A DNA stretch of 64,000 bases from an uncultured Maribacter sp. (GTDB lineage Bacteria; Bacteroidota; Bacteroidia; Flavobacteriales; Flavobacteriaceae): contig CAZTLZ010000001.1 in assembly GCA_964614665.1 (NCBI GenBank), positions 563 to 64,562 of the forward strand, read 5' to 3'. Below, piece by piece: positions 37,197 to 63,806 of the stretch. How positions within the stretch are numbered: the stretch's first letter is position 1; the number at the start of each line of letters is the position of its first letter. A program made the position numbers and the translations under genes. The notes beneath the pieces were generated by a model. The model was given only the letters and a program-made list of their open reading frames with translations. It did no database searches and had not been told where the DNA came from.

Positions 37197-37431
37197 AGAG
37201 GTTATTATAGAAAAAATCGACGATTTTCTCGTCGATGAATTCGAGGTAGAGGAAGAAACTATAGCTCCAGGAGCAAATCTTAAAGACACACTTGGTCTTG
37301 ATAGCTTAGACTTTGTTGACTTGGTGGTTGCTGTTGAAAGTAATTTTGGTGTCAAATTAGTAGGCGAAGACTTTGTCAATGTAATTACTCTCAAAGATTT
37401 CTATGATCTGATAGAACAAAAATTAAGCTAA
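37183..37431 (+). CDS. Acyl carrier protein
   Basis: LGLDSLD phosphopantetheine attachment site. Confidence 0.92.
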   Translation: MMMTKEVIIEKIDDFLVDEFEVEEETIAPGANLKDTLGLDSLDFVDLVVAVESNFGVKLVGEDFVNVITLKDFYDLIEQKLS

Positions 37432-37453
37432 TTTGCGCCAATAAAATCTGAGA

Positions 37454-39261: not shown

Positions 39262-39263
39262 TA

Positions 39264-41697: not shown

Positions 41698-41700
41698 AAC

Positions 41701-42696: not shown

Positions 42697-42736
42697 ATTG
42701 TCAAAAAAGTCACCCTTCCGGGGATTTAGCAAGCCT

Positions 42737-46308: not shown

Positions 46309-46375
46309 GTCCAAATAAAGTCCCATACTTCTTAAATTCGCAGACTGAAATTTATCGATAAATAAGGAATTGCCG

Positions 46376-47437: not shown

Positions 47438-47443
47438 TATTCT

Positions 47444-48049: not shown

Positions 48050-48303
48050 GCGAGTTGAAAATAGAACTGAAGGAGAAAATCATAGAGCAATTGAATTTAG
48101 AAGATATTGCTGTTGAAGAGATTGCTGATACTGACCCTCTATTTGGTGAGGGCCTTGGGCTTGATTCTATTGATGCTTTAGAACTTATTGTAATGCTCGA
48201 TAAAGATTACGGTATTAAATTGGCCGACCCTAAAGAGGGTAGAAAGATTTTTGAGTCTATCGATACTATGGCCAGTTATATTGCCGAGCATAGAAGTAGA
48301 TAG
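48046..48303 (+). CDS. Acyl carrier protein
   Basis: PLFGEGLGLDSIDALE. Confidence 0.92.
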   Translation: MSELKIELKEKIIEQLNLEDIAVEEIADTDPLFGEGLGLDSIDALELIVMLDKDYGIKLADPKEGRKIFESIDTMASYIAEHRSR

Positions 48304-48364
48304 TAGCCTTACCACGTTTTTCTTTTAACGCCTCACTTTAAAATTTCCCTTTAAAACATATTCG

Positions 48365-48372
48365 TATTTTTG
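48365..48372 (+). promoter_or_regulatory. Possible internal -7 promoter element
   Basis: TATTTTTG (TAnnTTTG) in a 100-nt gap, one of the largest in the operon, 31 nt before the KS start. Confidence 0.45.
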
Positions 48373-48403
48373 AATCGGAAAACAATTCTGTCTGGGATCA
48401 TAG

Positions 48404-49603
48404 ATGAGTAAAGGAGTAGCTATTACGGGTATGGGCATTATATCGGCCATTGGTGACAATGTGCAAGAGAACTACCAATCACTCATAACCCGTCAAATGG
48501 GTATTTCAAAAATCACCCAAATTGAAACTATCCATAAAGACGAAATCATGGTTGGTGAAGTTAAAGCCACTAATTCTGATCTAGAGCAACAACTAGGTCT
48601 GCCAACCAATTCATATTCCCGTTCACCAATGCTTGGTATGATCGCTGCTCAAGAAGCCGTTCAACAAGCTGGAATCACTGATATCAATGACTATAAAACC
48701 GGACTAATTTCAAGCACAACGGTTGGTGGAATGGATAAATCTGAACAGTATTTCTTCGAATATTTCGAAAGTGATAAACATCACAACCATATTAACGGGC
48801 TACATGCCGGAGACTCCACTAGAAAAATTGCCAAACATCTGGGGCTTGAGAAAAGTTTTATGACCACTATAAGCACAGCTTGCTCTTCTGCGGCCAATGC
48901 AATTATGTTGGGTGCGCGTATGATTAAATCAGGTCGTTTGGATCGCGCTGTGGTTGGTGGAACAGATTCGCTATCCAAATTCACCATAAACGGTTTCAAG
49001 ACCTTGATGATTTTATCAGACACCTTCAACAAGCCGTTTGATGACAATCGAAAAGGGCTGAATTTAGGGGAGGCCGGGGCTTTCTTGGTGTTGGAATCAG
49101 ATTCAGTCATTAAAAAAGAGAACAGAGAGGTTTTGGCCTATGTCAAAGGTTATGGAAATGCCAACGATGCCTTTCACCAAACAGCTTCTTCCGAAAATGG
49201 TGATGGTGCGGTCATGGCAATGGAAAAAGCATTGAAAGTAGCAGGCCTCAAACCTGAAGATATTGACTATGTGAATGCGCATGGTACGGCAACACCTAAT
49301 AATGATCTATCAGAGGGAAGAGCGATGCTTCGGATTTTTGGAAACAATGTGCCAGAGTTCAGTTCTACGAAAGCATTTACAGGGCATACCTTGGCCGTAG
49401 CAGGAGGAGTCGAAGCGGTTTATTCTGTTTTGGCCTTGCAAAATAATCGCATTTACCCAAACCTCAACTTTAGGACTCCCATGAAGGAATTCAATCTACT
49501 GCCGGAGACCGAGGCCAAAGAAAAAGAACTAAAGCATGTCTTATCAAATTCGTTCGGTTTCGGGGGGAATTGTTCTACACTGATAATCTCCAAAGAAGCG
49601 TGA
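48404..49603 (+). CDS. Beta-ketoacyl-ACP synthase (aryl polyene KS)
   Basis: STACSS, HGTATPNND, GHTLA, SNSFGFGG. Confidence 0.92.
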   Translation: MSKGVAITGMGIISAIGDNVQENYQSLITRQMGISKITQIETIHKDEIMVGEVKATNSDLEQQLGLPTNSYSRSPMLGMIAAQEAVQQAGITDINDYKTGLISSTTVGGMDKSEQYFFEYFESDKHHNHINGLHAGDSTRKIAKHLGLEKSFMTTISTACSSAANAIMLGARMIKSGRLDRAVVGGTDSLSKFTINGFKTLMILSDTFNKPFDDNRKGLNLGEAGAFLVLESDSVIKKENREVLAYVKGYGNANDAFHQTASSENGDGAVMAMEKALKVAGLKPEDIDYVNAHGTATPNNDLSEGRAMLRIFGNNVPEFSSTKAFTGHTLAVAGGVEAVYSVLALQNNRIYPNLNFRTPMKEFNLLPETEAKEKELKHVLSNSFGFGGNCSTLIISKEA

Positions 49604-50664
49604 AAAAATCCGTCTACATAAATAGCGTTGGCTCGGTTTCCGCTCAAAAAACTTTCGATAACTCAGAATTCTTATCGGAAATTTCAGAATATCATGCGAC
49701 CGAATTGACCGTTGTTGCGCCAGACTACAAAGCCTATATTCCACCTGCTGCTGCCCGCCGAATGGCAAAGGGTATAAAAATGAGCACAGTAAGCTCTCAA
49801 ACAGCATTAAAAGAAGCTGGCATCGAAAATATAGATGCGATCATAGTGGGCACAGGACTGGGTTGTCTTGCCGATTCCGCCAAATTTGTGGGTGATATCA
49901 TAAACAATGACGAACAATTTTTGACGCCAACCCGTTTTATCCAGTCCTCGCATAATACGGTGGCCGGCCAAATAGCATTGGGCCTAGGCTGTAAGGGCTA
50001 TAACTTTACCTATGTAAATTCTACAGTGTCTTTTGAGTCAAGTTTGTTAGATGCTCAACTTCAGCTAGAGAATAACGAGGCCCAAAATATTCTCGTAGGA
50101 GGTGTTGATGAGATGGTCGATCATCATGTGAAATCACATCAATTGATAGGACATTTCAAAACCGAAGCAATTACTTCAAAATCCTTACTGACTTCTAAAA
50201 CCGAAGGGGCGATAATGGCCGAGGGGTCGCACTTTTTTGTATTATCCAATAAAAAGCAATCCTCCACCTACGCTGAACTCGTAGCAGTACAGATTTATAA
50301 TAATCTTATACAAGATCAACTTCCAAGTCAAATTGAATCTTTTTTAGCGGATAATGATACGACTAAGGATGATGTTGATTTGGTGATTTTAGGAAATAAT
50401 GGAGATTTCAACTTTGATGGCTACTATAATTCTCTGAGTGAGGGGTATTTCAAGAATACACCTCAAGCCTACTTCAAACATTTATCCGGGGAATTCGATA
50501 CTGCAACTGGATTCGCTTTCTGGTTGGCCGCCAAAATAATAAAAAAGCAGATGATACCTGATGTGGTAAAATTGAACGTTTTAGAAGCAAAACCGAATAC
50601 CGTTCTAATTTACAATCAATACCGAGGGGAAAATCATAGCCTTGTACTACTTCGAAAATGTTAA
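49600..50664 (+). CDS. Ketosynthase chain-length factor
   Basis: RRM....KM, PTRFIQSSHNTVAGQIAL; active-site Cys absent (NSTVSFESSL); GTGA overlap with the KS. Confidence 0.82.
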   Translation: MKKSVYINSVGSVSAQKTFDNSEFLSEISEYHATELTVVAPDYKAYIPPAAARRMAKGIKMSTVSSQTALKEAGIENIDAIIVGTGLGCLADSAKFVGDIINNDEQFLTPTRFIQSSHNTVAGQIALGLGCKGYNFTYVNSTVSFESSLLDAQLQLENNEAQNILVGGVDEMVDHHVKSHQLIGHFKTEAITSKSLLTSKTEGAIMAEGSHFFVLSNKKQSSTYAELVAVQIYNNLIQDQLPSQIESFLADNDTTKDDVDLVILGNNGDFNFDGYYNSLSEGYFKNTPQAYFKHLSGEFDTATGFAFWLAAKIIKKQMIPDVVKLNVLEAKPNTVLIYNQYRGENHSLVLLRKC

Positions 50665-51434
50665 AACGAAGAATCATTAATGGTATTTGTGTTGCCCTGC
50701 TATTGGCTATGCTTGTTTTGAATTTCTTTTTTCAAATTCCTTGGTGGAGCTTTGTGGTATTATTGTTCATTTGGTTTCTTATTACACTGGGGGGGTCATT
50801 TTTTATTCAATGGAATTACCATTTGAACTCGCTACATTCGAATAAGTCCATACCTAAAAATCAAATCGCCCTGACATTCGATGATGGGCCACATCCTGAA
50901 TTCACCCCTATGGCGCTTGACTTGCTAAAAGCACACAAGGCGAGAGCAACTTTCTTTTGTATCGGGCACCATATTGAGAAGCATCCCGAATTATTCAAAC
51001 GTATACTTGCTGAAGGACATACGGTAGGAAATCACACCTATTCTCATTCAAAATCCTTCGGATTCTTTGGCACTGAAAAAGTTATCGACGAACTAAAGCA
51101 GACCAAGGCTTTGGTCAAAAAATTGACAGGAAAATCAATGAATCTCTATCGACCTGCTTTTGGAGTGACCAACCCAGTGATTGAAAGAACAGTGAAACAA
51201 TTGGATATTGTAAGTATTGGGTGGAATGTACGTTCGTTGGATACTACCAGCCGTCCAGAAAAGCTGATAATGAAAAGAATAACATCACGATTATCAAAAG
51301 GTGATGTAATATTATTGCATGATACCAGTCACAAGACGATCAATGTTTTGGAACAGTTATTGTTATTTTTGGAGGAGAAAAATTTGGAGTCCGTCACGAT
51401 CGAAGAACTTTTACAACTAAAAGCTTATGCGTAA
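50658..51434 (+). CDS. Membrane-anchored polysaccharide deacetylase (CE4/NodB)
   Basis: Two N-terminal TM helices; ALTFDDGP, ATFF, GNHTYSH, YRPAFG, ILLHD. Confidence 0.9.
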   Translation: MLKRRIINGICVALLLAMLVLNFFFQIPWWSFVVLLFIWFLITLGGSFFIQWNYHLNSLHSNKSIPKNQIALTFDDGPHPEFTPMALDLLKAHKARATFFCIGHHIEKHPELFKRILAEGHTVGNHTYSHSKSFGFFGTEKVIDELKQTKALVKKLTGKSMNLYRPAFGVTNPVIERTVKQLDIVSIGWNVRSLDTTSRPEKLIMKRITSRLSKGDVILLHDTSHKTINVLEQLLLFLEEKNLESVTIEELLQLKAYA

Positions 51435-52044
51435 CCTTATTTGTCTTTTCTTTTTGGTTTCCACCTTTGTGGGTGCTCAGACTAAAATGAGTACTTCCGA
51501 GGCGGAGGCCCTAAAAGCCAAAGTTAGGGGCCAAGCAGAAGTTACAAAGACTATTTCAAGTGATTTTGTACAATATAAACATCTTGACTTTTTATCGAAC
51601 GACATTGAATCAACAGGAAAGTTAGCTTTTAAATCTCCCGATTGGGTCAAATGGGAATATGTAAAACCCTTCGAATATTCAGTAATCTTCAAAAACGAAA
51701 CACTTTATATCGATGACAGTGGTAACAAGAGTTCAATGGATATGGGTTCAAACAAGATTTTCAAACAGCTAAACCAACTCATTACCGTCAGTATAAAGGG
51801 TGATTTATTCGATTCCCCGGAGTTCACAGTTTCCTATTTTAAGAAAGAAAAAAAGAGTGAGGCCCATTTTGAACCAACTGACCCTGAATTTAGAGAGTTT
51901 ATCAAATCCTTTCAGATTTCTTTCAATACCAAGGGTGAAGTTAAGGAAGTAAAAATGATAGAACCTTCTGACGACTATACTCAAATTATTTTTAGCAACA
52001 GAATTGTAAACCAAGCACTACCCGATGAAGTTTTTGCTCATTAG
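51427..52044 (+). CDS. LolA-like outer-membrane lipoprotein/lipid carrier
   Basis: Signal peptide, F.QYKHLDFLSNDIESTG...FKSPD.VKWEY..P. Confidence 0.82.
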   Translation: MRNLICLFFLVSTFVGAQTKMSTSEAEALKAKVRGQAEVTKTISSDFVQYKHLDFLSNDIESTGKLAFKSPDWVKWEYVKPFEYSVIFKNETLYIDDSGNKSSMDMGSNKIFKQLNQLITVSIKGDLFDSPEFTVSYFKKEKKSEAHFEPTDPEFREFIKSFQISFNTKGEVKEVKMIEPSDDYTQIIFSNRIVNQALPDEVFAH

Positions 52045-52633
52045 CATACTGATTACGACGTGCGTTTCATGTACATCATATCCCAAAAGAAATAATTTAA
52101 AACCGATTGAAAACGGCAGTACTTCTGTTCTAAATCCGTACTTCGCGAATTCCTCCAAAGATTATATCTACAAGGCGAATATCACTGCTTTTGATAAGGA
52201 TTTCGGTGGTGTTTTCATTGTTAAGAAATTAGGGCCGGACCATCATCGCGTCGCTTTTACCACCGAATTAGGGAATAAGATTTTCGATTTCACATTTTAC
52301 AAAGATGATTTCAAGGTAAACCATATCTTGAAAGAAATGAATAGAAAACTGCTTCTTAATATTTTAAGGAATGATTTTAGGGCTTTAATTAAAGAAGATC
52401 TATCTGAAGAAAAAACATTTTCAAAGGAGAATAGCATCGTTTATCAAACAAAAATATATGGAAAACAGCACTTCTATTTTCTAAAAGGCAAGCATCTACA
52501 TAAAATAACCAAAGTCAAACATGGAAAGGAAATAGTAGAATTTCTGTTTTCGGAAATAAATGATGACCTTGCGCAGCAGATTGAAATCAATCATAAGAAC
52601 CTAAGGCTTTCCATTCGCCTAAAGTCTATTTAA
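52025..52633 (+). CDS. Hypothetical lipoprotein (possible LolB-like partner)
   Basis: Lipobox CVSC; beta-rich; follows the LolA-like gene as in aryl polyene clusters. Confidence 0.6.
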   Translation: MKFLLISILITTCVSCTSYPKRNNLKPIENGSTSVLNPYFANSSKDYIYKANITAFDKDFGGVFIVKKLGPDHHRVAFTTELGNKIFDFTFYKDDFKVNHILKEMNRKLLLNILRNDFRALIKEDLSEEKTFSKENSIVYQTKIYGKQHFYFLKGKHLHKITKVKHGKEIVEFLFSEINDDLAQQIEINHKNLRLSIRLKSI

Positions 52634-52635
52634 AT

Positions 52636-53004
52636 ATGTTAATAGAAGGATTGTATACTGTTCAGAATTTGGAACAAAATGACCAAGAAGTAAAGGCTTC
52701 TGTGAAACTGAATGCCTCACACGAGGTTTTTAAAGGGCATTTTCCTGGCAACCCGGTAATGCCTGGAGTTTGTATGATACAAATGATCAAAGAACTCACT
52801 GAACAAGTTTTAGACAAACAACTCTTCTTGAATGTGGCCACAAATGTAAAATTCATGGCCATCATCAATCCGTTGGTGAATGAAACAATAGATTTGACAT
52901 TGAACATCTCTGAAGCAGATGGTATCATAAAAGTCAAAAATCTAACTTCCTATGATGATACTGTGGCATTAAAATTGAATGCTACTTTCAAAATAATGGA
53001 ATAA
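52636..53004 (+). CDS. 3-hydroxyacyl-ACP dehydratase (FabA/FabZ, ApeI-like)
   Basis: FKGHFPGNPVMPGVC. Confidence 0.88.
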   Translation: MLIEGLYTVQNLEQNDQEVKASVKLNASHEVFKGHFPGNPVMPGVCMIQMIKELTEQVLDKQLFLNVATNVKFMAIINPLVNETIDLTLNISEADGIIKVKNLTSYDDTVALKLNATFKIME

Positions 53005-53492
53005 TGCGTTACTTGTTTTTCCTCTTAGTTGCTGTACCTATATTTGGCTACACCCAAGAATTGAAAGTCCTGCGGTTGGAATATCCCACGGCAACTATTG
53101 ATACGCATACTGCTGAGGTCTTATCAAAGTCATTGGCGAATATTTCGGAACAAGATGATGCAACCCTAGTTGCCTACAAAGGCGCACTTTTAACCTTAAA
53201 AGCGAAATTCACAAGATCCATAAAAAGCAAGAAATCATATTTCAAAGAAGGCGTTGCGCTTTTAGAGCATGCTATTTCAGAGGAACCTGAAAATATTGAA
53301 ATCAGGTGTATTCGCATGGGAGTACAGGAAAATTCGCCTAGAATCGTTAACTACAAGGGCCAAATAGCTGAAGACAAAAAATTCTTGCTTGATCATTACG
53401 ATACTATTAAAAACCAAGAAGTCAAAGAATTTATTCAAGGCTTTGTAGTACATTCCAAGCGTTTCAACGATGCCGAAAAGCAATTGTTTTAG
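53004..53492 (+). CDS. Exported helical (TPR-like) hypothetical protein
   Basis: Signal peptide; G..LLEHAISEEPENIEIR..R..VQEN. Confidence 0.7.
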   Translation: MRYLFFLLVAVPIFGYTQELKVLRLEYPTATIDTHTAEVLSKSLANISEQDDATLVAYKGALLTLKAKFTRSIKSKKSYFKEGVALLEHAISEEPENIEIRCIRMGVQENSPRIVNYKGQIAEDKKFLLDHYDTIKNQEVKEFIQGFVVHSKRFNDAEKQLF

Positions 53493-53564
53493 GTAGTGTA
53501 ATCCTTATCTTTACAGCATAAAATTGCCTGTTATTCTATTTGGGCTCTGAACAAAACTGTACTA

Positions 53565-54764
53565 GTGCCAACTACCCCATCAATCCACGAAACCATGGCT
53601 CAGCTTAAGTGCTGTGTGATTGTGCCTACCTACAATAATCATAAGACCTTAAAAAAAGTTTTGAATGGTCTTTTAGAACGCACTCAAAATATCATCGTGA
53701 TCAATGATGGTTCTACTGATGACACAGCGTTAATTCTAGCAGGTTTTCCTAAAGTTGAGCAAGTGCATTTGCCTCAAAATAAGGGTAAAGGAAATGCTCT
53801 AAAAATAGGTTTTGCAAAAGCATTGGCCTTAGGTTATGAATTTGCAATTACCATCGATTCAGATGGACAACATTTTCCAGAGGATATTCCGATTTTTCTC
53901 GATGCATTACAAAATGAAGCCACCAAAAACGTACTCTACATCGGAGCTCGAAATATGGATCAGGCAGATGTACCAGGTTCCAGTAGTTTTGGAAACAAAT
54001 TTTCCAATTTTTGGTTTTGGTTTGAAACTGGTACTTGGTTGAAAGATACCCAAAGTGGTTATCGTTTATATCCTTTGAGTGAAATTGAAAAACTAAACTT
54101 ATATACGCCAAAATTCGAATTTGAAATTGAAGTCATTGTTAAGGCTGCTTGGCGAGGTACATTGGTCAAAAATATTCCTATTCAAATCTCGTATGAGGAT
54201 GACGACCGTGTTTCCCATTTTAGAAAAGGTCCTGATTTTGCTCGTATCAGTGTTTTGAATACTTGGTTCGTACTGGTCGCTATTTTTTGGATTAAACCCA
54301 GAGATTTGTATCGTCGCTTCCGAAAAAAGGGGTTCCGACGGTTTATAAAAGAGGATATTTTACACAGCAGTGATTCTCCTAGAAAAAAAGCGCTGTCCAT
54401 TGCCCTGGGGGTTTTCATAGGCTTGTGCCCTTTGTGGGGTTTTCACACCGTTATCGTTTTATCGCTTGCGGTCTTGTTCAAATTGAACAAGGTAATAGCC
54501 TTCACTTTTTCCAATGTCAGTTTAGCACCATTTATCCCTTTTGTACTCTATGCAAGCCTAAGAACCGGCACATTTATTACTGGGGAAGATCTGACATATA
54601 CTTTTGAAAGTAGTATTGCGGATTTTGAACTTATTACTCACTTGAAAACGTACCTAATAGGTAGTTTGACCTTATCGATTTTAGCCGCAACGATATTTGG
54701 TATTTTAGGGTATTTCATGCTTTCCATCTTCGATAGAAAAAAAATAGCCGTCAACAATGGGTAG
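53565..54764 (+). CDS. Glycosyltransferase family 2 fused to a DUF2062 membrane domain
   Basis: VIVPTYNN, VINDGSTD, N.GKG, TIDSDGQH (DxD), DTQSGYRLY; C-terminal KALSIALGVFIG..P.WG. Confidence 0.9.
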   Translation: MPTTPSIHETMAQLKCCVIVPTYNNHKTLKKVLNGLLERTQNIIVINDGSTDDTALILAGFPKVEQVHLPQNKGKGNALKIGFAKALALGYEFAITIDSDGQHFPEDIPIFLDALQNEATKNVLYIGARNMDQADVPGSSSFGNKFSNFWFWFETGTWLKDTQSGYRLYPLSEIEKLNLYTPKFEFEIEVIVKAAWRGTLVKNIPIQISYEDDDRVSHFRKGPDFARISVLNTWFVLVAIFWIKPRDLYRRFRKKGFRRFIKEDILHSSDSPRKKALSIALGVFIGLCPLWGFHTVIVLSLAVLFKLNKVIAFTFSNVSLAPFIPFVLYASLRTGTFITGEDLTYTFESSIADFELITHLKTYLIGSLTLSILAATIFGILGYFMLSIFDRKKIAVNNG

Positions 54765-57700
54765 TTTTTTTCAAAGAGCATATCAGTTCATTTCCCAAAA
54801 AAAATGGCTAGGTGTATTAATACTTTTCATAGTTGTCTCTCTTCTTGCAGCGGTCGTTTCCAGAATCGAATTCGATGATGATATTAGTTCGTTGATTCCT
54901 GCTAGTGAAGAGACCAAGAAAACCCAGGAAATTCTAAAGTCGATTGCTTTTACCGACAAGATAATCGTAAATATTCATCGAGATCCGGAAACTTCAGTAG
55001 AAGAACTCACTCAATTTGCTTCCGCCTTTTTAGATAGTATTCAACGTACAAGCGGTTCATATATCAAAAGAGTTCAGGGGAAACTGAACGATGAAGATTT
55101 ACCCAATACCCTGAATTTAGTCTATGAGAACCTACCTCTTTTTCTTGATGAGCCCGATTATAATACCATTGCGGAAAAAATTTCGAAGGACAGCATTGCC
55201 AAAATCACAGCGCAGCATTACCGTACGCTGATTTCACCATCCGGTATTATCGCCTCAAAAACTATCAGAAAAGACCCTTTTGGACTTTCTTTTGTTGCAC
55301 TAAAAAAGTTACAGCAACTTGGTATAGGCGATGAATTCAAGCTAAAAGATGGATTTCTCGTTGACCAGAAAGAGGAGAATATCCTATTATTTATTACACC
55401 TACTAACGCCTCCGGTGAAACCGATAAGAATACCCCTTTTGTGAATCAATTATATGCACTTCAAAATCAATTGAAAGAATCGTTCGGCAACAGGGTATCC
55501 ATTGATTATTTTGGTGCGGCTTTGGTTGCCGTTGCGAATGCAAAGCAGATAAAAAAAGATGTACAGTTCACAGCCAGCATTGCGTTAATGGTTCTTTTCA
55601 TCGTATTAATCCTATTTTATAGAAAACTTAGTCTTCCCATTATTCTTTTCTTACCTACAGTGTTTGGCGGACTTCTATCTGTAGCGGTATTGGTTTTGCT
55701 TCGCGGAAAAATCTCAGCCATTTCCCTTGGAATCGGTTCTGTTCTACTAGGAGTCACTTTGGACTACTCCTTGCACATTCTCACCCATATTAGAAATGGA
55801 AAAAGCCTTAAATCGCTCTTTCATAATGTAGCGCCTTCCATATTAATGAGCAGTCTTACCACAGCTTCAGCTTTTTTGTGCCTCCTGTTCTTGAAATCAC
55901 AAGCACTTCAAGATCTTGGTGTTTTCGCGGCAATAAGTGTTTTAGGAGCTTCCGTTTTTGCCTTGTTATTTATTCCCCAGGTATATCGCCTAAAAAACGA
56001 TACGATTAGGAAAACAACTTTGCTAGACCGTATCGCCGATTATGATTTTCATAAAAACAAATGGGTGATAGGTCTTCTGACCGCACTTTTGATTACCGGT
56101 CTATTTACATACAGAAGTATAAGGTTCAATCAAGATATTGCAAAGTTGAACTATGAATCCGAGGTGTTGATTGAAGCCCGTGAACGATTGGAAGTCTTGA
56201 CAGATATCGGTTCTAAATCCATTTACTTATCGACCTATGGAGAAAATCAAGAGGAAGTTTTACAGCAAAATGATGAGCTTCTTAAAAAGTTAAAAGAACT
56301 GAAGGCCAACAATGAAATCTTAAGTTACAGTTCTATTGGGGCTTTGGTTCGTTCGAACAAAAAACAGCAAGAAAAAATAGCAGCTTGGGACAACTTTTGG
56401 GATTCAACAAAAATCAAGAACACTAAAAATAACCTTATCGATAGTGGTACTGCCTTAGGTTTTAAAGAAAATACGTTCTCGCAATTTTATGAACTATTAC
56501 AAACAGATTTCAAACCGTTGCAACTTTCGGACTTGAATAACTTTTCTTCTCTCGCCGTGGAAGATTTCATTGTTACCGATTCATCCGCAACGACAGTAAC
56601 CTCACTAATCAAAGTAAATACAGCTGATACTAAGAAGTTGAGAAATACTTTTTCAAATGTGCCCAAAACCCTACTTATTGACAGAAAACAAGTCAATGAA
56701 ACCTTTTTAGGAAATCTCAAAAATGATTTTAATCGCCTTATTTGGTACTCCTTGTTTGCTGTGGTATTGCTATTGGCCCTATTTTACAGAAGCCTATCAC
56801 TGACCCTGATTACAGCAATACCTCTATTTTTAAGTTGGTTTATGACTATAGGGATTTTGGCACTTTTTAAGATCGAATTCAATATTTTCAATATTATCAT
56901 ATCCAGTTTCATTTTTGGTCTTGGTGTTGATTACAGCATTTTTGTCACCAACGGTTTACTTACCCAATATCGCACTGGAGAAAAAACCCTTTCTACTCAT
57001 AAAACTTCAATAATACTCTCAGTATTAACTACACTTTTAGGTATTGGCGTGCTAGTATTTGCCAAACATCCGGCCTTATATTCCGTTTCCATTGTCTGCA
57101 TTATTGGTATTCTATCGGCAGCATTGATTTCTTTTACAATACAACCATTGTTGTTTCATTTACTTATCGGAAGCACTTCTAAAAGGCCTATTACCCCAAG
57201 AGTGCTTGCGCATTCCCTTTTGTCTTTTGGTTATTTTGATTTGGGAGGCTTAGTCCTTTCCGTATATTCATGGATTGTGATGAAAATTAACCCAAAAGCA
57301 CATTTAAAAAAGCAAATGGGACTTCACAAGTTGGTTTCAAAATTTATGAAATCGGTGTTGTACACCAATCCTTTTTTATGCAAAAAGGTTATCAATGAAC
57401 AAAATGAGACCTTTGAGAAACCCGCAATGTTGATTGCCAATCATACTTCTTTTCTCGATATTTTGGCGATGGGCATGTTGCATCCAAAACTTATTTATCT
57501 CGTCAAAGACCATGTTTACAATTCACCAACAGTGGGAAGTGCTGCTAAACTTCATGGAGCATACCCTGTCTCTGGCGGAATTGAAAATGGTGAAGAGTTT
57601 CTTCAACACAAAGTGGAACAAGGTTTTTCTATTGTAGCTTTTCCTGAAGGGGCAAGATCCACAACAAATAAAATCCATCGTTTTCATAAAGGCGCCTTCT

Positions 57701-58446
57701 ATCTAGCGGAAAAGTTGAAACTAGATATTCTACCTATTTTGATTCATGGAGGTTCAGAAGTTTCTCCCAAAGGTAGCTTCATCATTCGTGATGGTAGTTT
57801 TACGGTCAAAATGCTCCCTCGTATTAAAGCCGATGATGCTGCTTTCGGAACATCCTACAGTCAACGTTCGAAGCTTTTCGGTCAATACTTCAGATCGGCC
57901 TTTAGAAAATTTCGAAATGAAATTGAAGGTGAAGATTATTGGCATCAATTACTATTGGAGAATTATAGACATAAAGGAAAGGACATATATCAATCCGTAA
58001 AACAAGATTTGAAAACGTATCGAAAAGCCTATAAAGCTATCTTGTGTTCTTTGGGTGAAAAAGATAGTATCATTCATCTCTCTAACAAATGGGGCCAATT
58101 GGATCTACTCATGTCACTAGATTCGGTAGACCGAAAAATTTATAGTTTTTTGGAGAATGAAAAAGCGCGAGCAATCTTAAAAAATCACTACCTCAAATAT
58201 CGATACAGTAAAATCAAGGTATGTAAGGCTAAGTCAGCGGCATTTGAACAAAAAGCCTCGGTTCTTATTATTGATACGGATGCCTTCGACTTATCTGATA
58301 TTCCTAAGGAAAAAATAGATGAAATCACTATCTTGATACTATTAAATACGTCAAAAAGCAGCACTTTGAAAAGTGCTTTGCAAATTGGATTCTCTGAAAT
58401 AAAATCAAATGAGCACTTTGTTTTTTTGAAACGATTCGAAGCCTGA
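54757..58446 (+). CDS. MMPL/RND-family transporter fused to a PlsC acyltransferase and a degenerate C-terminal domain
   Basis: Two MMPL repeats (GVTLDYSLH, GLGVDYSIF); ANHTSFLD and FPEGARS acyltransferase motifs. Confidence 0.9.
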   Translation: MGSFFQRAYQFISQKKWLGVLILFIVVSLLAAVVSRIEFDDDISSLIPASEETKKTQEILKSIAFTDKIIVNIHRDPETSVEELTQFASAFLDSIQRTSGSYIKRVQGKLNDEDLPNTLNLVYENLPLFLDEPDYNTIAEKISKDSIAKITAQHYRTLISPSGIIASKTIRKDPFGLSFVALKKLQQLGIGDEFKLKDGFLVDQKEENILLFITPTNASGETDKNTPFVNQLYALQNQLKESFGNRVSIDYFGAALVAVANAKQIKKDVQFTASIALMVLFIVLILFYRKLSLPIILFLPTVFGGLLSVAVLVLLRGKISAISLGIGSVLLGVTLDYSLHILTHIRNGKSLKSLFHNVAPSILMSSLTTASAFLCLLFLKSQALQDLGVFAAISVLGASVFALLFIPQVYRLKNDTIRKTTLLDRIADYDFHKNKWVIGLLTALLITGLFTYRSIRFNQDIAKLNYESEVLIEARERLEVLTDIGSKSIYLSTYGENQEEVLQQNDELLKKLKELKANNEILSYSSIGALVRSNKKQQEKIAAWDNFWDSTKIKNTKNNLIDSGTALGFKENTFSQFYELLQTDFKPLQLSDLNNFSSLAVEDFIVTDSSATTVTSLIKVNTADTKKLRNTFSNVPKTLLIDRKQVNETFLGNLKNDFNRLIWYSLFAVVLLLALFYRSLSLTLITAIPLFLSWFMTIGILALFKIEFNIFNIIISSFIFGLGVDYSIFVTNGLLTQYRTGEKTLSTHKTSIILSVLTTLLGIGVLVFAKHPALYSVSIVCIIGILSAALISFTIQPLLFHLLIGSTSKRPITPRVLAHSLLSFGYFDLGGLVLSVYSWIVMKINPKAHLKKQMGLHKLVSKFMKSVLYTNPFLCKKVINEQNETFEKPAMLIANHTSFLDILAMGMLHPKLIYLVKDHVYNSPTVGSAAKLHGAYPVSGGIENGEEFLQHKVEQGFSIVAFPEGARSTTNKIHRFHKGAFYLAEKLKLDILPILIHGGSEVSPKGSFIIRDGSFTVKMLPRIKADDAAFGTSYSQRSKLFGQYFRSAFRKFRNEIEGEDYWHQLLLENYRHKGKDIYQSVKQDLKTYRKAYKAILCSLGEKDSIIHLSNKWGQLDLLMSLDSVDRKIYSFLENEKARAILKNHYLKYRYSKIKVCKAKSAAFEQKASVLIIDTDAFDLSDIPKEKIDEITILILLNTSKSSTLKSALQIGFSEIKSNEHFVFLKRFEA

Positions 58447-58447
58447 T

Positions 58448-59989
58448 ATGAAAGACCACTACGACATTGTAATCATTGGCAGCGGTATGGGTGGCCTGGT
58501 CGCGGCCAACATTCTGGCACGTGAAGGTCGTAGCGTTTGTGTGCTTGAAAAGAACAATCAATTCGGCGGCAACCTTCAAACTTTCGTGCGTGAACGTACC
58601 ATTTTCGATACGGGAGTACATTATATTGGCGGACTTTCAAAAGGACAAAACCTTTATCGATACTTTGAATATCTGGATATCTTAGACGGATTGGAATTCA
58701 AACAATTGAATCAAGATGGATTCGATATCATCACATTCGATAATGACAAACTAGAATACCCTCATGCTCAGGGCTATGAGAACTTCACCAAACAACTTGT
58801 CAAAAGATTTCCCGAAGAAGGGGATGCCATTAAAACCTATTGCTCTAAACTACAGGAAATCTGTCAAAAATTTCCGCTTTATAATCTACAGGAGGGTAAA
58901 CCCTATGGCAACGATGCTGAAATTTTTCAACAATCCGCCAAAGATTATATCGATTCCATAACAACCAATGAAAAGCTACGTGCTGTTTTGGCGGGCTCGA
59001 ATCTGTTGTATGCTGGTGATCCAGGCAAAACCCCGGTTTATGTTCATGCATTATCCTGTAACTCTTATATTGAGAGTGCATACCGTTGTGCAGACGGCGG
59101 AAGTCAGATTACTAAACGACTCATCCGAAGATTGAAGGAGCATAATGGTGATGTATTCAAGCATCAAGAGGTGGTCGATATGGAATGTATTGATAAAAAA
59201 ATTAAGTCGGTTAAAACAAGCAAAGGGGATATCATATCTGGGGATGTATTCATTTCAAATATCGAACCAAAACACACTTTGAAAATGGTGGGTGAAGAAC
59301 ATTTTCGAAAATCATACAATACTAGAATCAATAACTTAGAGAATACCATTTCGGCCTTTAGCATTCATATTGTACTCAAACCCAAAACGTTCAAATACCT
59401 CAACAAAAACTATTACCATTTCAAGGATTATCAAAAAGTCTGGAGCGCCCATGAATATAGTCAAGAGAGTTGGCCCGAAACATATATGGTATCAATGGGT
59501 GCCCGCAAAAATCAAAATGAGTGGGGTGATCAATTAACCGCTATTACCTATATGCGGTATGAAGAAGTAGCTCAGTGGAAAGACACCTTTAATACTGTAG
59601 CCAATAAAAATGACCGAGGTCAGACCTACGAGCAGTTTAAAGTGGAAAAAGCCGAAACGTTCTTAAAAGAACTGGAAAAGAAGTTTCCGAATATTCGAGA
59701 ATGTGTTCAAAGCATTCATACTTCTACACCCCTATCCTATCGGGATTATATTGGTTGCAACCAAGGTTCTATGTACGGTTATGTCAAAGATGTAAATGAC
59801 CCGTTGAAAGCTTTTATTTCCGCAAGAACCAAAATTCCGAATCTCTATTTTACTGGGCAGAGTTTGAATATGCACGGAATTTTGGGGGTAACCATTAGCG
59901 GCGTGGTTACCTGTTCAGAAATATTGGGTGGTGAGTATCTCATCAATAAAATCAATCCTGAAAAAAAGAAACAAAAAGTAATTGTCTAA
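58448..59989 (+). CDS. FAD-dependent oxidoreductase, phytoene desaturase / retinol saturase family
   Basis: IGSGMGG, LEK..QFGG..FDTGVHY, STPLSYRDY, NLYFTGQ..HGILG. Confidence 0.88.
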   Translation: MKDHYDIVIIGSGMGGLVAANILAREGRSVCVLEKNNQFGGNLQTFVRERTIFDTGVHYIGGLSKGQNLYRYFEYLDILDGLEFKQLNQDGFDIITFDNDKLEYPHAQGYENFTKQLVKRFPEEGDAIKTYCSKLQEICQKFPLYNLQEGKPYGNDAEIFQQSAKDYIDSITTNEKLRAVLAGSNLLYAGDPGKTPVYVHALSCNSYIESAYRCADGGSQITKRLIRRLKEHNGDVFKHQEVVDMECIDKKIKSVKTSKGDIISGDVFISNIEPKHTLKMVGEEHFRKSYNTRINNLENTISAFSIHIVLKPKTFKYLNKNYYHFKDYQKVWSAHEYSQESWPETYMVSMGARKNQNEWGDQLTAITYMRYEEVAQWKDTFNTVANKNDRGQTYEQFKVEKAETFLKELEKKFPNIRECVQSIHTSTPLSYRDYIGCNQGSMYGYVKDVNDPLKAFISARTKIPNLYFTGQSLNMHGILGVTISGVVTCSEILGGEYLINKINPEKKKQKVIV

Positions 59990-59993
59990 TGTA

Positions 59994-60866
59994 ATGGGAC
60001 AGCTTAGAACTTCACCAGTAACACGGGTAGAGAATATCTCGAAAGAGGATTTTGTAGAACATTTTTACAAGCCACAAAAACCGGTTCTTATAGAGGGTAT
60101 GACAAGGCAATGGCCAGCCTATAAAAACTGGACACTGGACTATATTCAGAATCGGGCGGGAGAACAGATCGTACCATTATATAATAATGAGCCTGCAAAA
60201 GGCAGCGAGAGTGTGTATGCTCCAAAGAAAGAAATGAAGCTAGCCGATTATCTTGAAATTCTAAAGACACAACCTACAGATCTCAGAATTTTCTTCTATG
60301 AGATTTTAAAAAAGATGCCCGAACTCATCGATGATTTTGAGTATCCGGATATCGGATTGAAGTTTTTTAAAAAATTACCTGCTTTATTCTTTGGTGGCGG
60401 AAAGTCTAAAGTATTCATGCATTATGATATAGACTTACCAGATAGTTTGCATTTTCATTTTGACGGCCATAAAAGTGTTACCCTATTTTCTCCCGAGCAA
60501 ACCAAATATTTATACCGTGTGCCCTACTCCATTCACAATTTAGAATCGATAGATATGGATAATCCTGATTTTGAAAAATATCCTGCTCTGCAATATGCCG
60601 AAGGTATTCAAGCAGATATGAAACATGGTGACGCCCTTTACATGCCTAGCGGCTATTGGCATTATATCAAATATCTAGACGGAGGATTCTCAATGACCCT
60701 AAGAGCATTGCCCAGAAATCCCAAGCGTTTTCTACATATGCTTTCAAATGTACTTATCATGCGTAATTTCGATAATTTTACACGAAAGTATTGGGGTCAA
60801 AAATGGCTCGATTATAAAGATGAGCTCGCCATAAAACGAACCGAACGGAATCTAAAGCATGTTTAA
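59994..60866 (+). CDS. JmjC / cupin-like 8 Fe(II)-2-oxoglutarate dioxygenase
   Basis: F...KPQKPVLI, LFFGG..S..FMHYD (HxD), GDALYMPSGYWH (distal His). Confidence 0.88.
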   Translation: MGQLRTSPVTRVENISKEDFVEHFYKPQKPVLIEGMTRQWPAYKNWTLDYIQNRAGEQIVPLYNNEPAKGSESVYAPKKEMKLADYLEILKTQPTDLRIFFYEILKKMPELIDDFEYPDIGLKFFKKLPALFFGGGKSKVFMHYDIDLPDSLHFHFDGHKSVTLFSPEQTKYLYRVPYSIHNLESIDMDNPDFEKYPALQYAEGIQADMKHGDALYMPSGYWHYIKYLDGGFSMTLRALPRNPKRFLHMLSNVLIMRNFDNFTRKYWGQKWLDYKDELAIKRTERNLKHV

Positions 60867-62517
60867 ACTCATAGTCCCAGTCCTTACCCTTTTAGTCTTG
60901 AGTTCCTGTGGAATTTCAAAAGGTTTGGAAGACCGTCCTGATATTTCGAAATATGATACCACACTTCCGGAAAGAACAAAACTGTCGGACTCCACTTTTA
61001 CCATAGGTGACAATTTCTTGACTAAGAACAAACATGGTCTTTGGGAAATGTATGTCAAGGGTAATCCGATGGAATTAGGTTTGAACCAAGGTGCTTTAAG
61101 TAAAGAACTCTTCAATCAACAAGAGGCTGTTTTTTTAAAAAAGATTGATGAATTGGTGCCGTCAAAGGGATATCAAAACATTCTACGAAAATTTTTGGCT
61201 TGGTTCAACCGCAAAGTGTATTTGCATATTGATGAACAATATAAGGCCGAGATTTACGGAATCTCGCAATATGCCTCACCCGATTACGATTACATCGCGG
61301 AGGAATATGCCCGTGTTCTTTATTTTCACGGAGCACATGATATTGGCCATGCCTTACAAGACTTGGCCTTGGTAGGTTGCTCTTCCTTTGCCTCTTGGGG
61401 TGAAAATACGAAAGATGGTAAACTACTGATTGGCCGCAATTTTGATTTCTACGCGGGTGATGACTTTGCAAAAAATAAGATCATAGCCTTTGTCGAACCC
61501 GAAGATGGGCACAAATTCATGTCCGTCACTTGGGGCGGAATGATCGGTGTGGTCTCTGGAATGAACGACCAAGGATTAACGGTAACTATTAATGCTGGAA
61601 AATCACAATTCCCATTAGTTGCCAAAACACCCGTTTCATTGGTGACGCGAGAAATATTACAATATGCTTCAACTATTGAAGAAGCCATTGCCATAGCCAA
61701 AAGGCGGGAAGTCTTTGTATCGGAATCTATTTTTGTGGGAAGTGCAAAGGATAAAAAAGCTGCGGTAATTGAGGTCTCGCCAAAAAACTTCGGTGTGTAT
61801 GAGGTTCCAAATTCCAGCAATCAATTGATTTGTTCCAATCACTTTCAGAGCGCGGCTTATGCAAATGACGAAAAGAACCAGCAACATATTCTGGAAAGCC
61901 ATTCCCAATATCGTTATGACCGAATGCAGGAATTGCTTGAGGAAACAGAAAAAATCACGCCTAAAAAAGTAGTCGATATTCTAAGAAATCGTGAGGGATT
62001 GGATGAAAAAGAAATTGGTTACGGCAACGAAAAAGCATTGAATCAAATGTTGGCACATCATGGAATTGTTTTTCAACCAGAAGATTTGTTGGTTTGGGTT
62101 TCCAGCAGCCCCTATCAAATGGGCGAATTCGTGGCCTATGATCTAAAAGAAGTCTTTTTGAGCCAAAATAGGGGTGCAACAGCAATGGTCAAATCAGCAT
62201 TGAATATTGAGAAAGACTCCTTTTTAAACACCGCAGCCTACCAAAATTATGAGCGGTATCGTTCACTGCGGAATAGAATCGAAGATGCGATTGCCAAAGA
62301 AAAACATCTGGATCAACAGTTATTGTCAGAATTCATCAGCTTGAATCCCAATTTTTGGGAGGTACATTACCTGGTTGGAAAATACAATCTGGAAAAAGGG
62401 TATGACAGCGTAGCCCTAAATGCATTTCTTGCTGCGGAAACCAAAGAAATTACTACTTTGCCTGACCGAAAACAAGTAGAAAAACAAATCAAGAAATTGA
62501 GTAGAAGACTGAATTAA
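60859..62517 (+). CDS. Peptidase C45 / acyl-CoA:6-APA acyltransferase-like Ntn-hydrolase lipoprotein
   Basis: Lipobox LSSC; LVGCSSF autoprocessing Cys; GRNFDF, SGMNDQGL, CSNHF. Confidence 0.85.
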   Translation: MFKLIVPVLTLLVLSSCGISKGLEDRPDISKYDTTLPERTKLSDSTFTIGDNFLTKNKHGLWEMYVKGNPMELGLNQGALSKELFNQQEAVFLKKIDELVPSKGYQNILRKFLAWFNRKVYLHIDEQYKAEIYGISQYASPDYDYIAEEYARVLYFHGAHDIGHALQDLALVGCSSFASWGENTKDGKLLIGRNFDFYAGDDFAKNKIIAFVEPEDGHKFMSVTWGGMIGVVSGMNDQGLTVTINAGKSQFPLVAKTPVSLVTREILQYASTIEEAIAIAKRREVFVSESIFVGSAKDKKAAVIEVSPKNFGVYEVPNSSNQLICSNHFQSAAYANDEKNQQHILESHSQYRYDRMQELLEETEKITPKKVVDILRNREGLDEKEIGYGNEKALNQMLAHHGIVFQPEDLLVWVSSSPYQMGEFVAYDLKEVFLSQNRGATAMVKSALNIEKDSFLNTAAYQNYERYRSLRNRIEDAIAKEKHLDQQLLSEFISLNPNFWEVHYLVGKYNLEKGYDSVALNAFLAAETKEITTLPDRKQVEKQIKKLSRRLN

Positions 62518-63806
62518 TGATTCCAGAAATTGAGAAAGCAACATCCCAAGAAATCAAAACTTTTCAAGAAGGCAGACTGAAAGAGCTTATCAGTTATGTG
62601 AACGAAAAATCTCCCTATTATCGACGCGTTTTTCGAAACTACAAAATCAGTCCGTCGGATATCAATTCTTTAGAAGACCTGGCTAAACTTCCCGTTACCA
62701 CCAAGGAACAATTACAGCGTCATAATGAGGACTTCTTTTGTGTGCAAAAATCGAAAATTATTGATTATGTCACTACCTCCGGTACTTTAGGTGAACCAGT
62801 AACCGTCGGATTAACCGATAAGGATTTAGAGCGTTTGGCATACAACGAGGCCATCTCTTTTGCATGTGCAGGTATAAAAGAAGATGATATTCTGCAACTC
62901 ACTACAACTATGGATCGCCGATTCATGGCAGGACTGGCCTATTTCTTAGGTGTTCGAAAATTAGGTGCGGGAATCATTCGGGTAGGTGCAGGAATACCTG
63001 AATTGCAGTGGGACAGTATTTCAAAATTCAAACCTTCATACCTCATCGTAGTCCCTTCTTTTTTATTGAAGCTTATTCAATATGCCGAAGCTCACGATAT
63101 TGATGTAAACGCCTCAGGAATCAGGGGAGCCATCTGTATAGGCGAATCACTGCGTAACCAAGACTTTTCACTGAATGTACTGGCCGAAAAAATCAAGGCG
63201 AAATGGGATATTGAATTGTTTTCGACCTATGCATCCACAGAAATGAGTACGGCATTTACGGAATGCTCAGAGCGACAAGGCGGACATCAACATCCCGAAT
63301 TAATAATTACCGAAATTTTGGATGAGAACGATCAACCCGTTTCCGAAGGTAAAGAAGGTGAGTTGGTGATTACTACTTTGGGGGTTGAGGCAATGCCATT
63401 AATTCGATTCAAAACAGGCGATATTGTAGTGGCCCATAATACCTCTTGCAACTGTGGAAGAAACACGACACGTTTAGGTCCTGTTGTCGGTCGTAAACAA
63501 CAAATGATCAAGTATAAGGGTACTACATTGTACCCCCCGGCTATGCATAATGCACTCAATGACTTTCCTGAAGTTTCGCGCTTCGTTATTGAAATTTCAC
63601 ATAATGACATCGGTACAGATGAAATACTGATTAAAATCGATTCTAAAAATCCAACGGATGGGCTACTCCATAAAATCAAGGATCATTTCAGGTCTAAACT
63701 GAGAGTGACGCCCAGTATTGAATTTTGCCCCAGTAGCGAAATTCAAAAATTACAAGCCTCGAAACTAGGTCGAAAACCTATTACGGTTATTGATTTGAGA
63801 GGATGA
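62517..63806 (+). CDS. Phenylacetate-CoA-ligase-family AMP-binding enzyme (probable 4-coumarate-CoA ligase of the cluster)
   Basis: TTSGTLG, YASTEM, P.IRFKTGD, GR..QMIK.KG..LYP. Confidence 0.88.
   Translation: MIPEIEKATSQEIKTFQEGRLKELISYVNEKSPYYRRVFRNYKISPSDINSLEDLAKLPVTTKEQLQRHNEDFFCVQKSKIIDYVTTSGTLGEPVTVGLTDKDLERLAYNEAISFACAGIKEDDILQLTTTMDRRFMAGLAYFLGVRKLGAGIIRVGAGIPELQWDSISKFKPSYLIVVPSFLLKLIQYAEAHDIDVNASGIRGAICIGESLRNQDFSLNVLAEKIKAKWDIELFSTYASTEMSTAFTECSERQGGHQHPELIITEILDENDQPVSEGKEGELVITTLGVEAMPLIRFKTGDIVVAHNTSCNCGRNTTRLGPVVGRKQQMIKYKGTTLYPPAMHNALNDFPEVSRFVIEISHNDIGTDEILIKIDSKNPTDGLLHKIKDHFRSKLRVTPSIEFCPSSEIQKLQASKLGRKPITVIDLRG

Follow-up and report, generated by a model that had tools for sequence, protein, structure and literature searches.

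The in-cluster Cupin_8 gene

The 64,000-nucleotide stretch of DNA analyzed here, referred to below as the window, comes from the genome of an uncultured Maribacter sp. (GenBank assembly GCA_964614665.1, contig CAZTLZ010000001.1, positions 563 to 64,562 of the forward strand) and contains a flexirubin-type pigment cluster. Close to the end of this cluster, profile matches and alignments confirm a predicted Fe(II)/2-oxoglutarate (2OG) oxygenase of the Cupin_8/JmjC type with an intact catalytic triad, encoded by nucleotides 59994 to 60866 and named in-cluster Cupin_8 hereafter. Pfam analysis of the protein reports a hit with PF13621 (E 1.4e-34, 120.6 bits for a cut-off of 27.4, residues 20-233), and no NCBIfam model matches it. 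A homologue search returns 4666 proteins at E <= 0.001 which, together with the low nonsynonymous divergence (dN) given below, indicates that the open reading frame (ORF) is not a chance one. An alternative TTG start at 59982 would add four residues, but the ATG is preferred because alignments with the relatives begin at residue 1 of the shorter, ATG-initiated protein. The protein is devoid of a signal peptide.

The first-pass annotation of this DNA had placed the gene within a pigment operon, tightly coupled to both of its neighbors and provided with a complete HxD...H triad, and the sequence agrees on each of these points. The upstream gene encodes a CrtI-like FAD oxidoreductase and stops with a TAA at 59987-59989, four nucleotides before the Cupin_8 ATG. 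The downstream gene encodes a C45-family autoproteolytic acyltransferase/hydrolase (C45), whose ATG at 60859 overlaps the end of Cupin_8 (TAA at 60864-60866) by 8 nucleotides. Flexirubin cluster genes are found on both sides, the last one, directly after C45, encoding FlxY, the 4-coumarate-CoA ligase of flexirubin biosynthesis. When the gene is compared pairwise with named orthologues (19 pairs, 66-90% protein identity), dN ranges from 0.055 to 0.256; the synonymous counterpart dS can be computed in only three pairs (2.6-6.0) and is undefined in the other 16, synonymous sites being seemingly saturated. These comparisons indicate that in-cluster Cupin_8 is under purifying selection.

Alignment with human JMJD5 pairs H143 and D145 with the HQD motif of this enzyme, H223 with its WHY motif, and K160 with the lysine of its GRK motif. 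The three aligned residues of JMJD5 are its iron ligands, and its lysine binds the C5-carboxylate of 2OG. All four residues are invariant in the 97 sequences compared, comprising 53 in-cluster copies, 19 housekeeping copies, and 25 distant homologues. In Fe/2OG halogenases, the carboxylate of the triad is replaced by a small residue. This swap is not encountered in the window protein: with D145 in place and invariant, one expects a site of the hydroxylase type.

The AlphaFold (AF2) model calculated from the 97-row alignment (pLDDT 94.9, pTM 0.91) comprises a jelly-roll core covering residues ~5-238, followed by two long C-terminal helices (residues 243-287), and the predicted core has the double-stranded β-helix fold of this superfamily, as judged from the model confidence and from its likeness to JMJD5. 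Foldseek reports JMJD5, TYW5, JMJD7, and FIH as top matches, with TM-scores up to 0.86 on the target. A fold search against representative structures returns JMJD5 (Z 23.9), TYW5 (23.5), JMJD7 (21.1), FIH (19.9), and JMJD6 (18.2), as well as the OocPQ Fe/2OG halogenase (PDB 8a82, 17.1), histone demethylases (14-18), and ribosomal oxygenases (12-14). Among solved structures, sequence matches rank in a similar way, with JMJD5 at E 1.7e-27, TYW5 at 1e-21, and FIH at ~2e-17, and pairwise identity to the JMJD5, FIH, JMJD7, and TYW5-type hydroxylases is 20-28%.

Occurrence in Bacteroidota and Flavobacteriaceae

The cluster was recognized by a FlxY scoring over the NF053551 cut-off. Of 401 genomes drawn evenly across the phylum Bacteroidota, 25, the window genome included, possess such a FlxY, and a Cupin_8 homologue lies within 5 kb of it in three of them, namely the window genome and two others (G022 and G318, 77% and 62% identity, respectively), all three belonging to the Flavobacteriaceae. 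Proximity to FlxY is an incomplete test, as FlxY does not adjoin C45 in several of the 25 genomes. The remaining matches of the phylum draw share at most 52% identity and lie on a different contig or at a distance of hundreds of kb. No in-cluster Cupin_8 was found in the seven FlxY-positive genomes of the most sampled genus (g21), nor in any FlxY-positive genome outside the Flavobacteriaceae. In two g21 clusters (L017 and L018) and in those of G262, G198 (family f18), and G118 (family f23), the genes encoding the MMPL exporter-acyltransferase fusion, the CrtI-like protein, C45, and FlxY follow each other with nothing between them, and these clusters, read directly, are devoid of Cupin_8. Conversely, no flexirubin genes were detected within ~4 kb of the Cupin_8 homologues fetched as separate loci (L200-L239), which returned only weak ketosynthase (KS), ketoreductase (KR), and ABC transporter matches. 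Cupin_8 is thus no core gene of flexirubin clusters.

The situation is different within the Flavobacteriaceae. In a draw of 401 genomes of this family with a maximum of two per genus, FlxY is found in 92 genomes and in 70 of the 302 genera. The 20 kb upstream of FlxY were taken for the 91 non-window genomes, and the 30 cluster proteins of the window were searched against them. Cupin_8 is present in 53 of these 91 clusters and is in every case directly upstream of C45. Its own upstream neighbor is the CrtI-like gene in 38 carriers and an exporter gene in 15 clusters of a compact type that lacks the CrtI-like gene. Cupin_8 is absent from the other 38 clusters, three of which are uninformative: L136 contains only C45 and FlxY, L175 contains FlxY alone, and L189 ends with its contig within C45. 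Among the carriers examined, a Cupin_8 of the in-cluster type was never seen outside its cluster position.

A scan of named genomes gave a concordant picture. The best 80 of 154 relatives, with 65-90% identity, were kept and belong to at least 17 genera, including Maribacter, Pricia, Zobellia, Tamlana, Pseudotamlana, Wocania, Aquimarina, Algibacter, Tenacibaculum, Pelagihabitans, Marinirhabdus, Aequorivita, Ulvibacterium, Cerina, Altibacter, Mangrovimonas, and Ulvibacter; the closest ones are from Maribacter and allied marine Flavobacteriaceae. All 80 loci have Cupin_8 in the same cluster position. The CrtI-like gene is immediately upstream in 79 (the remaining locus starts inside Cupin_8), C45 is immediately downstream in 78 (one locus stops at a contig end and one lacks C45), and FlxY follows in 64. 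With a position fixed in 80/80 named loci and in 53/53 carriers of the family draw, and with in-cluster copies forming a single clade that is inherited along with the cluster (see below), Cupin_8 is a widespread accessory gene of the pigment clusters of marine Flavobacteriaceae. The first-pass annotation knew of no JmjC gene in described flexirubin clusters. The gene is missing from most clusters across the phylum (3/25 with the gene) but common in the Flavobacteriaceae; a peculiarity of this one genome it is not, given the 53 family clusters and the 80 named relatives that share it.

The compact clusters (L016, L122, L129, and others) extend from the tyrosine ammonia-lyase (TAL) gene to flxY in less than 20 kb and are devoid of the CrtI-like gene, LolB2, a 162-residue ORF, the ABC transporter, and the dar genes. 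None of the 15 compact carriers has DarB in its genome, so their products are probably aryl-polyene lipids and not true flexirubins. In two other Bacteroidota families, a small ORF is located between C45 and FlxY (L020, 16363-16746; L022, 16259-16786). Read by eye, it looks like an AcpS-type phosphopantetheinyl transferase, and the window has none at this place.

Origin and repeated loss

In a tree inferred from 97 homologues with IQ-TREE (LG+C20, quick search), for which two sequences of 25% identity served as the root and one 193-residue fragment was excluded, all 53 in-cluster copies group into one clade (SH-aLRT 97). Its sister group is formed by housekeeping Cupin_8 copies of the Flavobacteriaceae (99), and copies from a neighboring family, f7, come next (99). 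The housekeeping Cupin_8, about 50% identical to the in-cluster protein, is present in most Flavobacteriaceae genomes. In the window genome it is located on another contig (G000:C43:2751-3596, corresponding to L013 2739-3602), shares 51% identity with in-cluster Cupin_8, and is surrounded by genes for a sigma-54 regulator, a histidine kinase, recX, RNase G, mutY, and ssb. The two paralogues have the same length and the same catalytic residues, but the housekeeping one lies elsewhere, next to recX, and seven fixed differences separate them. Defined as positions at least 90% conserved in each clade and different between clades, these are 101 F/L, 150 D/N, 181 H/I, 209 M/L, 219 S/E, 225 I/M, and 235 T/S. 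Positions 150, 219, and 225 are a few residues away from the metal ligands in sequence, and position 101 aligns with a JMJD5 residue that we take to contact the substrate.

In 12 of 21 family loci, the housekeeping gene comes directly after a co-oriented bioB-like gene, the usual order being bioA-like, KS-like, bioB-like, Cupin_8, and a convergent recX downstream. If functional, this neighborhood would be a weak hint tying the subfamily to acyl-chain chemistry, although it could reflect conserved synteny alone. A biotin operon comprising a KS and a JmjC oxygenase might also point to an as yet undescribed way of making the pimelate moiety, or the arrangement may be mere synteny. More distant Cupin_8 homologues lie in varied and uninformative neighborhoods. 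Tandem or near-tandem Cupin_8 duplicates were observed outside pigment clusters in three genomes (L206 in G130, L220 in G421, and L222 in G298), and duplicates of family f19 adjoin fasciclin and DUF3050 genes.

The history of the gene within the cluster was followed on a FastTree tree of concatenated FlxY and C45 (91 rows), which the data leave unrooted. All 54 carriers fall within one 72-row clade (support 99), and the 19 rows outside this clade are all without Cupin_8, one of them being the split and uninformative cluster L136. The fewest state changes on this tree amount to 12, or 11 without two uninformative rows, which reads as one gain followed by about ten losses, a direction that is taken from the monophyly of the Cupin_8 copies. 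One non-carrier inside the clade (L147, genome G707) retains a remnant: the 228-nucleotide gap between its CrtI-like and C45 genes encodes 47 residues resembling the N-terminus of Cupin_8 (40% identity, E 1e-10). No remnant was found in the gaps of the other non-carriers, which span 2-164 nucleotides in the long cluster type and 157-618 in the compact one. The clusters outside the carrier clade contain the CrtI-like, C45, and FlxY genes in this order, with 2-228 nucleotides between the first two across the sampled non-carriers.

Such a history could also be that of a hitch-hiker, a housekeeping duplicate that settled in the operon without any role in pigment synthesis and kept its ancestral function or a general stress role. 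Its sister relationship to a paralogue carried by most genomes of the family and its loss on about ten occasions without loss of the cluster are in keeping with this explanation. We nevertheless consider it improbable, as the position is fixed in all 80 named and 53 sampled carrier clusters over many genera and never found elsewhere, the gene appears to be under purifying selection, and the seven clade-specific differences, fixed while the housekeeping copy was retained, argue for a new role.

Partner genes, compartment, and candidate targets

The first-pass annotation had proposed the alkyl chain of the dialkylresorcinol (DAR) as one possible target. DarB, searched in the 53 carrier genomes with the NF053539 cut-off, is present in 35 of them, and a further copy is cut by a contig end. 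The remaining 17 genomes, which are 95-99% complete and include five single contigs, have no DarB match at E <= 1e-60, the threshold set for absence. These 17 carriers, comprising the 15 compact clusters and two others, keep the Cupin_8 gene with all its catalytic residues, so DAR is not the conserved substrate. That the enzyme hydroxylates DAR alkyl chains, an idea in line with the presence of DarA and DarB in the window cluster and of DarB in most carriers, is consequently very improbable.

Two potential partner genes were likewise discarded. A pair formed by the hydroxylase and the O-methyltransferase was suggested by the raw counts (31/15 vs 13/16). In compact clusters the methyltransferase accompanies 14 of 15 carriers vs none of nine non-carriers; in long clusters, it is present in 17 carriers and missing from 21, vs 14/14 among non-carriers. 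However, the five independent contrasts between carriers and non-carriers occur mostly without a change in methyltransferase (3.0 of 5 pairs unchanged). Dependence on the CrtI-like gene was rejected as well, since 15 carriers lack this gene and the eight contrasts go without its change (7.5 of 8 pairs unchanged). Cupin_8 is therefore independent of DarB, of the methyltransferase, and of the CrtI-like gene, and genomic context provides no partner for it.

The constant downstream neighbor probably resides in another compartment. In the window, the N-terminus of C45 exhibits a hydrophobic stretch followed by Cys17 (MFKLIVPVLTLLVLSSC, window 60859-60915). In nearly all of the 90 Flavobacteriaceae C45 loci, the hydrophobic run is followed by the motif SCG; 69 loci conform to a strict lipobox pattern, the others differing at positions -1 to -3 or in their start codon. 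C45, the presumed catalyst of the joining of pigment and acceptor, thus probably acts outside the cytoplasm and may work in the periplasm. Because C45 has a lipoprotein-type N-terminus and Cupin_8 no signal sequence, the two proteins are probably located on opposite sides of the inner membrane. C45 of two other families has an N-terminus that resembles a membrane anchor instead.

These locations bear on the possibility that Cupin_8 is a protein hydroxylase modifying a component of the pathway, such as an acyl carrier protein (ACP), a ketosynthase, or C45 before its export, and thereby tuning pigment synthesis, perhaps in response to oxygen, without altering the formula of the pigment. Its best matches in sequence and fold, JMJD5 (an arginyl hydroxylase), JMJD7, FIH, and TYW5, speak for such a function, as do the bacterial JmjC protein BipG, which hydroxylates a peptidyl ornithine (PMC12707348), and the bacterial members of the clade that Iyer et al. 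place in peptide-modifying neighborhoods (PMC2938197). Yet identity to the protein hydroxylases amounts to 20-28%, no dedicated small substrate gene adjoins Cupin_8, C45 with its lipoprotein signal probably works in another compartment, and a Cupin_8 member working on a polyketide line, OocP, exists. On balance, we regard a protein target as unlikely.

The surrounding cluster

The coordinates of the cluster and of its main features are collected in Table 1. All long ORFs of the cluster are on the forward strand. The first ones encode an aromatic ammonia-lyase, a WG-repeat protein, a KR, a KS, an LpxL-type acyltransferase, the DarA-like ORF, and DarB. They are followed by three small ORFs, a BtrH_N/DUF4872 protein, an ABC transporter, a thioesterase, a second KS, a Methyltransf_2 enzyme, and a KS/chain length factor (CLF). 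Downstream are a polysaccharide deacetylase, LolA, LolB2_flexi (NF053540), a FabA-like dehydratase (DH), and a glycosyltransferase of the GT2/DUF2062 type, and the cluster ends with the MMPL exporter fused to a PlsC-type acyltransferase, the CrtI-like oxidoreductase, Cupin_8, C45, and FlxY. The assignment of the DarA-like ORF is based on position and a tblastn match only. The cluster is of the flexirubin type because FlxY and DarB score above their cut-offs and LolB2_flexi, TAL, KR, KS/CLF, and the thioesterase accompany them.

Table 1. Features of the pigment cluster and catalytic codons of in-cluster Cupin_8 (window coordinates)
Feature	Coordinates	Strand	Basis
Co-directional flexirubin-type cluster, tyrosine/histidine ammonia-lyase gene to flxY	32509..63806	+	Pfam and NCBIfam
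DarA-like ORF and DarB (dialkylresorcinol genes)	38338..40397	+	DarB NF053539, 648.6 bits (cut-off 550)
MMPL/RND exporter fused to PlsC-type acyltransferase	54757..58446	+	Pfam/NCBIfam
CrtI-like FAD oxidoreductase (Amino_oxidase/NAD_binding_8), upstream neighbor	58448..59989	+	Pfam/NCBIfam
In-cluster Cupin_8/JmjC Fe(II)/2OG oxygenase gene (predicted)	59994..60866	+	Open 290-codon frame, 290 residues, Pfam
H143-Y144-D145 codons, HxD of the metal triad (H143 60420-60422, D145 60426-60428)	60420..60428	+	Alignment to JMJD5
K160 codon	60471..60473	+	Aligned with the lysine of the GRK motif in JMJD5
H223 codon, distal histidine of the triad (WHY motif)	60660..60662	+	Alignment to JMJD5
C45-family autoproteolytic acyltransferase/hydrolase	60859..62517	+	NF040521, 243.9 bits
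FlxY, 4-coumarate-CoA ligase of flexirubin biosynthesis	62517..63806	+	NF053551, 728.5 bits (cut-off 520)

The WG-repeat protein, located between the ammonia-lyase and KR genes (window 34041-35168), contains seven repeats, and the BtrH_N/DUF4872 protein (window 41701-42696) precedes the ABC transporter. A scan for terminator consensus sites returned 11 sites for 9.3 expected and is uninformative; the promoter model is ill-suited to Bacteroidota. The assembly comprises a second FlxY gene (G000:C297:377-1648, L014; 717.8 bits), 76% identical to that of the window and located on a 2.6-kb contig, which belongs either to another strain within this assembly (368 contigs, contamination 2.86%) or to a second cluster.

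Candidate role of Cupin_8

The reading that we favor, with a probability of about 0.55, is that in-cluster Cupin_8 is a cytoplasmic accessory Fe(II)/2OG hydroxylase acting on an aryl-polyene or lipid part shared by flexirubin producers and producers devoid of DAR; its hydroxylase function, its role in the pigment pathway, and the choice of its substrate are what we infer from the data above. Duplication of the housekeeping Cupin_8 gene in Flavobacteriaceae would have given rise to the gene, and a single recruitment would have brought it into the flexirubin/aryl-polyene cluster directly upstream of C45, where it would serve as an optional tailoring enzyme outside the core machinery. The enzyme would hydroxylate an sp3 carbon on something common to both kinds of producers, in the cytoplasm and before export by the MMPL protein. 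Candidate substrates would be an ACP-bound intermediate of aryl-polyene chain elongation or the acyl/sugar lipid carrier. The former comes into consideration because it has the sp3 carbons that are missing from the finished polyene, and a substrate on a polyketide line has a precedent in OocP, a Cupin_8 protein that acts in trans during polyketide chain elongation. As to the latter, the aryl polyene of Xenorhabdus is reported to be esterified to GalNAc-phosphate-diacylglycerol (bioRxiv 10.1101/2020.12.19.423268), and the window cluster has the kinds of genes matching such a carrier, namely acyltransferases, GT2, and a deacetylase.

Several points weigh against this hydroxylase reading. The gene has been lost about ten times, so the pigment pathway works without it, and in the contrasts of the methyltransferase and CrtI-like genes no cluster gene comes or goes with Cupin_8. 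The finished aryl polyene has almost no sp3 C-H, making a target on the chromophore hard to name. The characterized homologues closest in sequence and fold hydroxylate side chains of proteins, peptides, or tRNA, not lipids or polyketides, and OocP itself is a halogenase that works with a partner, OocQ, and shares 15% identity with the window protein. Lastly, we know of no hydroxylated flexirubin or aryl-polyene congener, although no search for one was made.

More tentatively, and with the odds somewhat against it, in-cluster Cupin_8 could represent the first oxygenase of the JmjC/Cupin_8 type to be dedicated to a type II polyketide synthase (PKS)-like aryl-polyene pigment, working on an ACP-tethered or lipid-linked intermediate, a kind of substrate that the present analysis did not encounter for any JmjC hydroxylase. 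In this case, a large clade of marine Flavobacteriaceae would possess an oxygenated pigment lipid. The sister paralogue beside bioB would then hint that the whole subfamily acts on acyl-carrier-bound chains.

Published traces and significance

In the taxonomy of Bacteroidota, flexirubin-type pigments serve as a standard marker. Aryl-polyene clusters are described among the most widespread bacterial gene clusters, with late steps and final lipid-bound products that are poorly known. Full-text literature searches returned no description of a JmjC/Cupin_8 gene in flexirubin or aryl-polyene clusters, papers combining aryl polyenes and cupins being judged by title. The marine aryl-polyene cluster of Kumagai et al. 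comprises 16 orthologue groups, none of which is given as a cupin in the legend of Fig. 5 (PMC5932025). In the supplement of the same paper, the groups enriched in proteorhodopsin-lacking genomes include those of FlxY and C45, and the list also contains an entry "Transcription factor jumonji, 05ECT, q = 0.037" (file 6, row 67) on which the main text is silent. Since this jumonji group is enriched alongside the FlxY and C45 groups, a statistical trace of the Cupin_8 gene is already in print, without description as a member of the cluster. What is new is an uncharacterized clade of a known enzyme family, as an accessory in a known kind of cluster.

The carrier genera include strains with a reported pigment phenotype. 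The flexirubin KOH test is reported to be positive for Maribacter thermophilus HT7-2 (PMC10942906), whose record is the carrier locus L052, for Galbibacter PAP.153 (PMC11237725), which has a cupin-like protein 73% identical to that of the window (by protein comparison alone), and for an Aequorivita strain (PMC5932025).

With a conserved but optional oxygenase in more than half of the Flavobacteriaceae clusters sampled, a congener that has not been described is predicted, and the existence of natural carriers and non-carriers as sister taxa provides a clean genetic handle. In the more tentative case of an oxygenase dedicated to the pigment, Maribacter, Zobellia, Aequorivita, Tamlana, and others would make an oxygenated flexirubin or aryl-polyene lipid that is missing from the model producers. 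Were the substrate a polyketide or a lipid, the range of JmjC-type hydroxylases would be widened beyond proteins, peptides, and tRNA. The practical interest is modest and concerns pigment chemistry, chemotaxonomy, and enzyme discovery.

Comparison with known systems

The clusters of C. pinensis (flxA-flxY together with darAB) and F. johnsoniae UW101 share the core of the window cluster, namely TAL, FlxY, KS/CLF, KR, DH, and thioesterase, as well as LolA, the glycosyltransferase, the exporter, C45, and DarA/DarB (PMC3992019). The main text of this paper contains none of the words "hydroxylase", "oxygenase", and "oxidoreductase".

Among characterized enzymes, the arginyl C-3 hydroxylase JMJD5/KDM8 (PDB 6f4n and 4gjy) is the closest, with a phmmer E of 1.7e-27, a profile E of 1.6e-70, and a superposition over 228 residues at 2.4 Å, the HxD...H triad and the lysine being aligned. 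It differs by its 26-28% identity, its eukaryotic origin, its ribosomal and RCCD1 protein substrates, and the absence of both the two C-terminal helices and a biosynthetic context. The tRNA wybutosine hydroxylase TYW5 (PDB 3al5) and the asparaginyl hydroxylase FIH (PDB 1h2k) belong to the same JmjC subgroup, and their alignments reach into the C-terminal helices, up to residues 267-274 of the model. Both enzymes dimerise through their C-terminal helices. Their identity to the window protein is 20-23%, and their substrates are tRNA in one case and ankyrin or HIF proteins in the other.

The first-pass annotation had considered it established that bacterial JmjC enzymes hydroxylate small molecules, a statement that is weakened here, as the characterized relatives found (JMJD5, FIH, JMJD7, TYW5, and BipG) take proteins, peptides, or tRNA, apart from OocP, a halogenase of a polyketide line. 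BipG resembles in-cluster Cupin_8, by description only, in being a bacterial JmjC hydroxylase within a natural-product cluster, that of biphenomycin, a peptide made on the ribosome and modified after translation (RiPP), and differs from it by its ribosomal peptide substrate (PMC12707348). Bacterial members of the same JmjC clade are also described next to peptide synthetases (Iyer et al., PMC2938197). OocP, from the oocydin trans-AT PKS and deposited as a "Cupin_8 domain-containing protein", alone among the matched Cupin_8 proteins acts on a polyketide assembly line (242 residues superposed, profile E 2.2e-14). An earlier paper noted only its cupin-like domain (PMC4552970), and OocP has since been described as a trans-acting halogenase that chlorinates during chain elongation with the auxiliary protein OocQ (PMC11260071). 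No OocQ-like partner was seen for the window Cupin_8 and, unlike Fe/2OG halogenases, the window protein has the aspartate at the second position of the triad.

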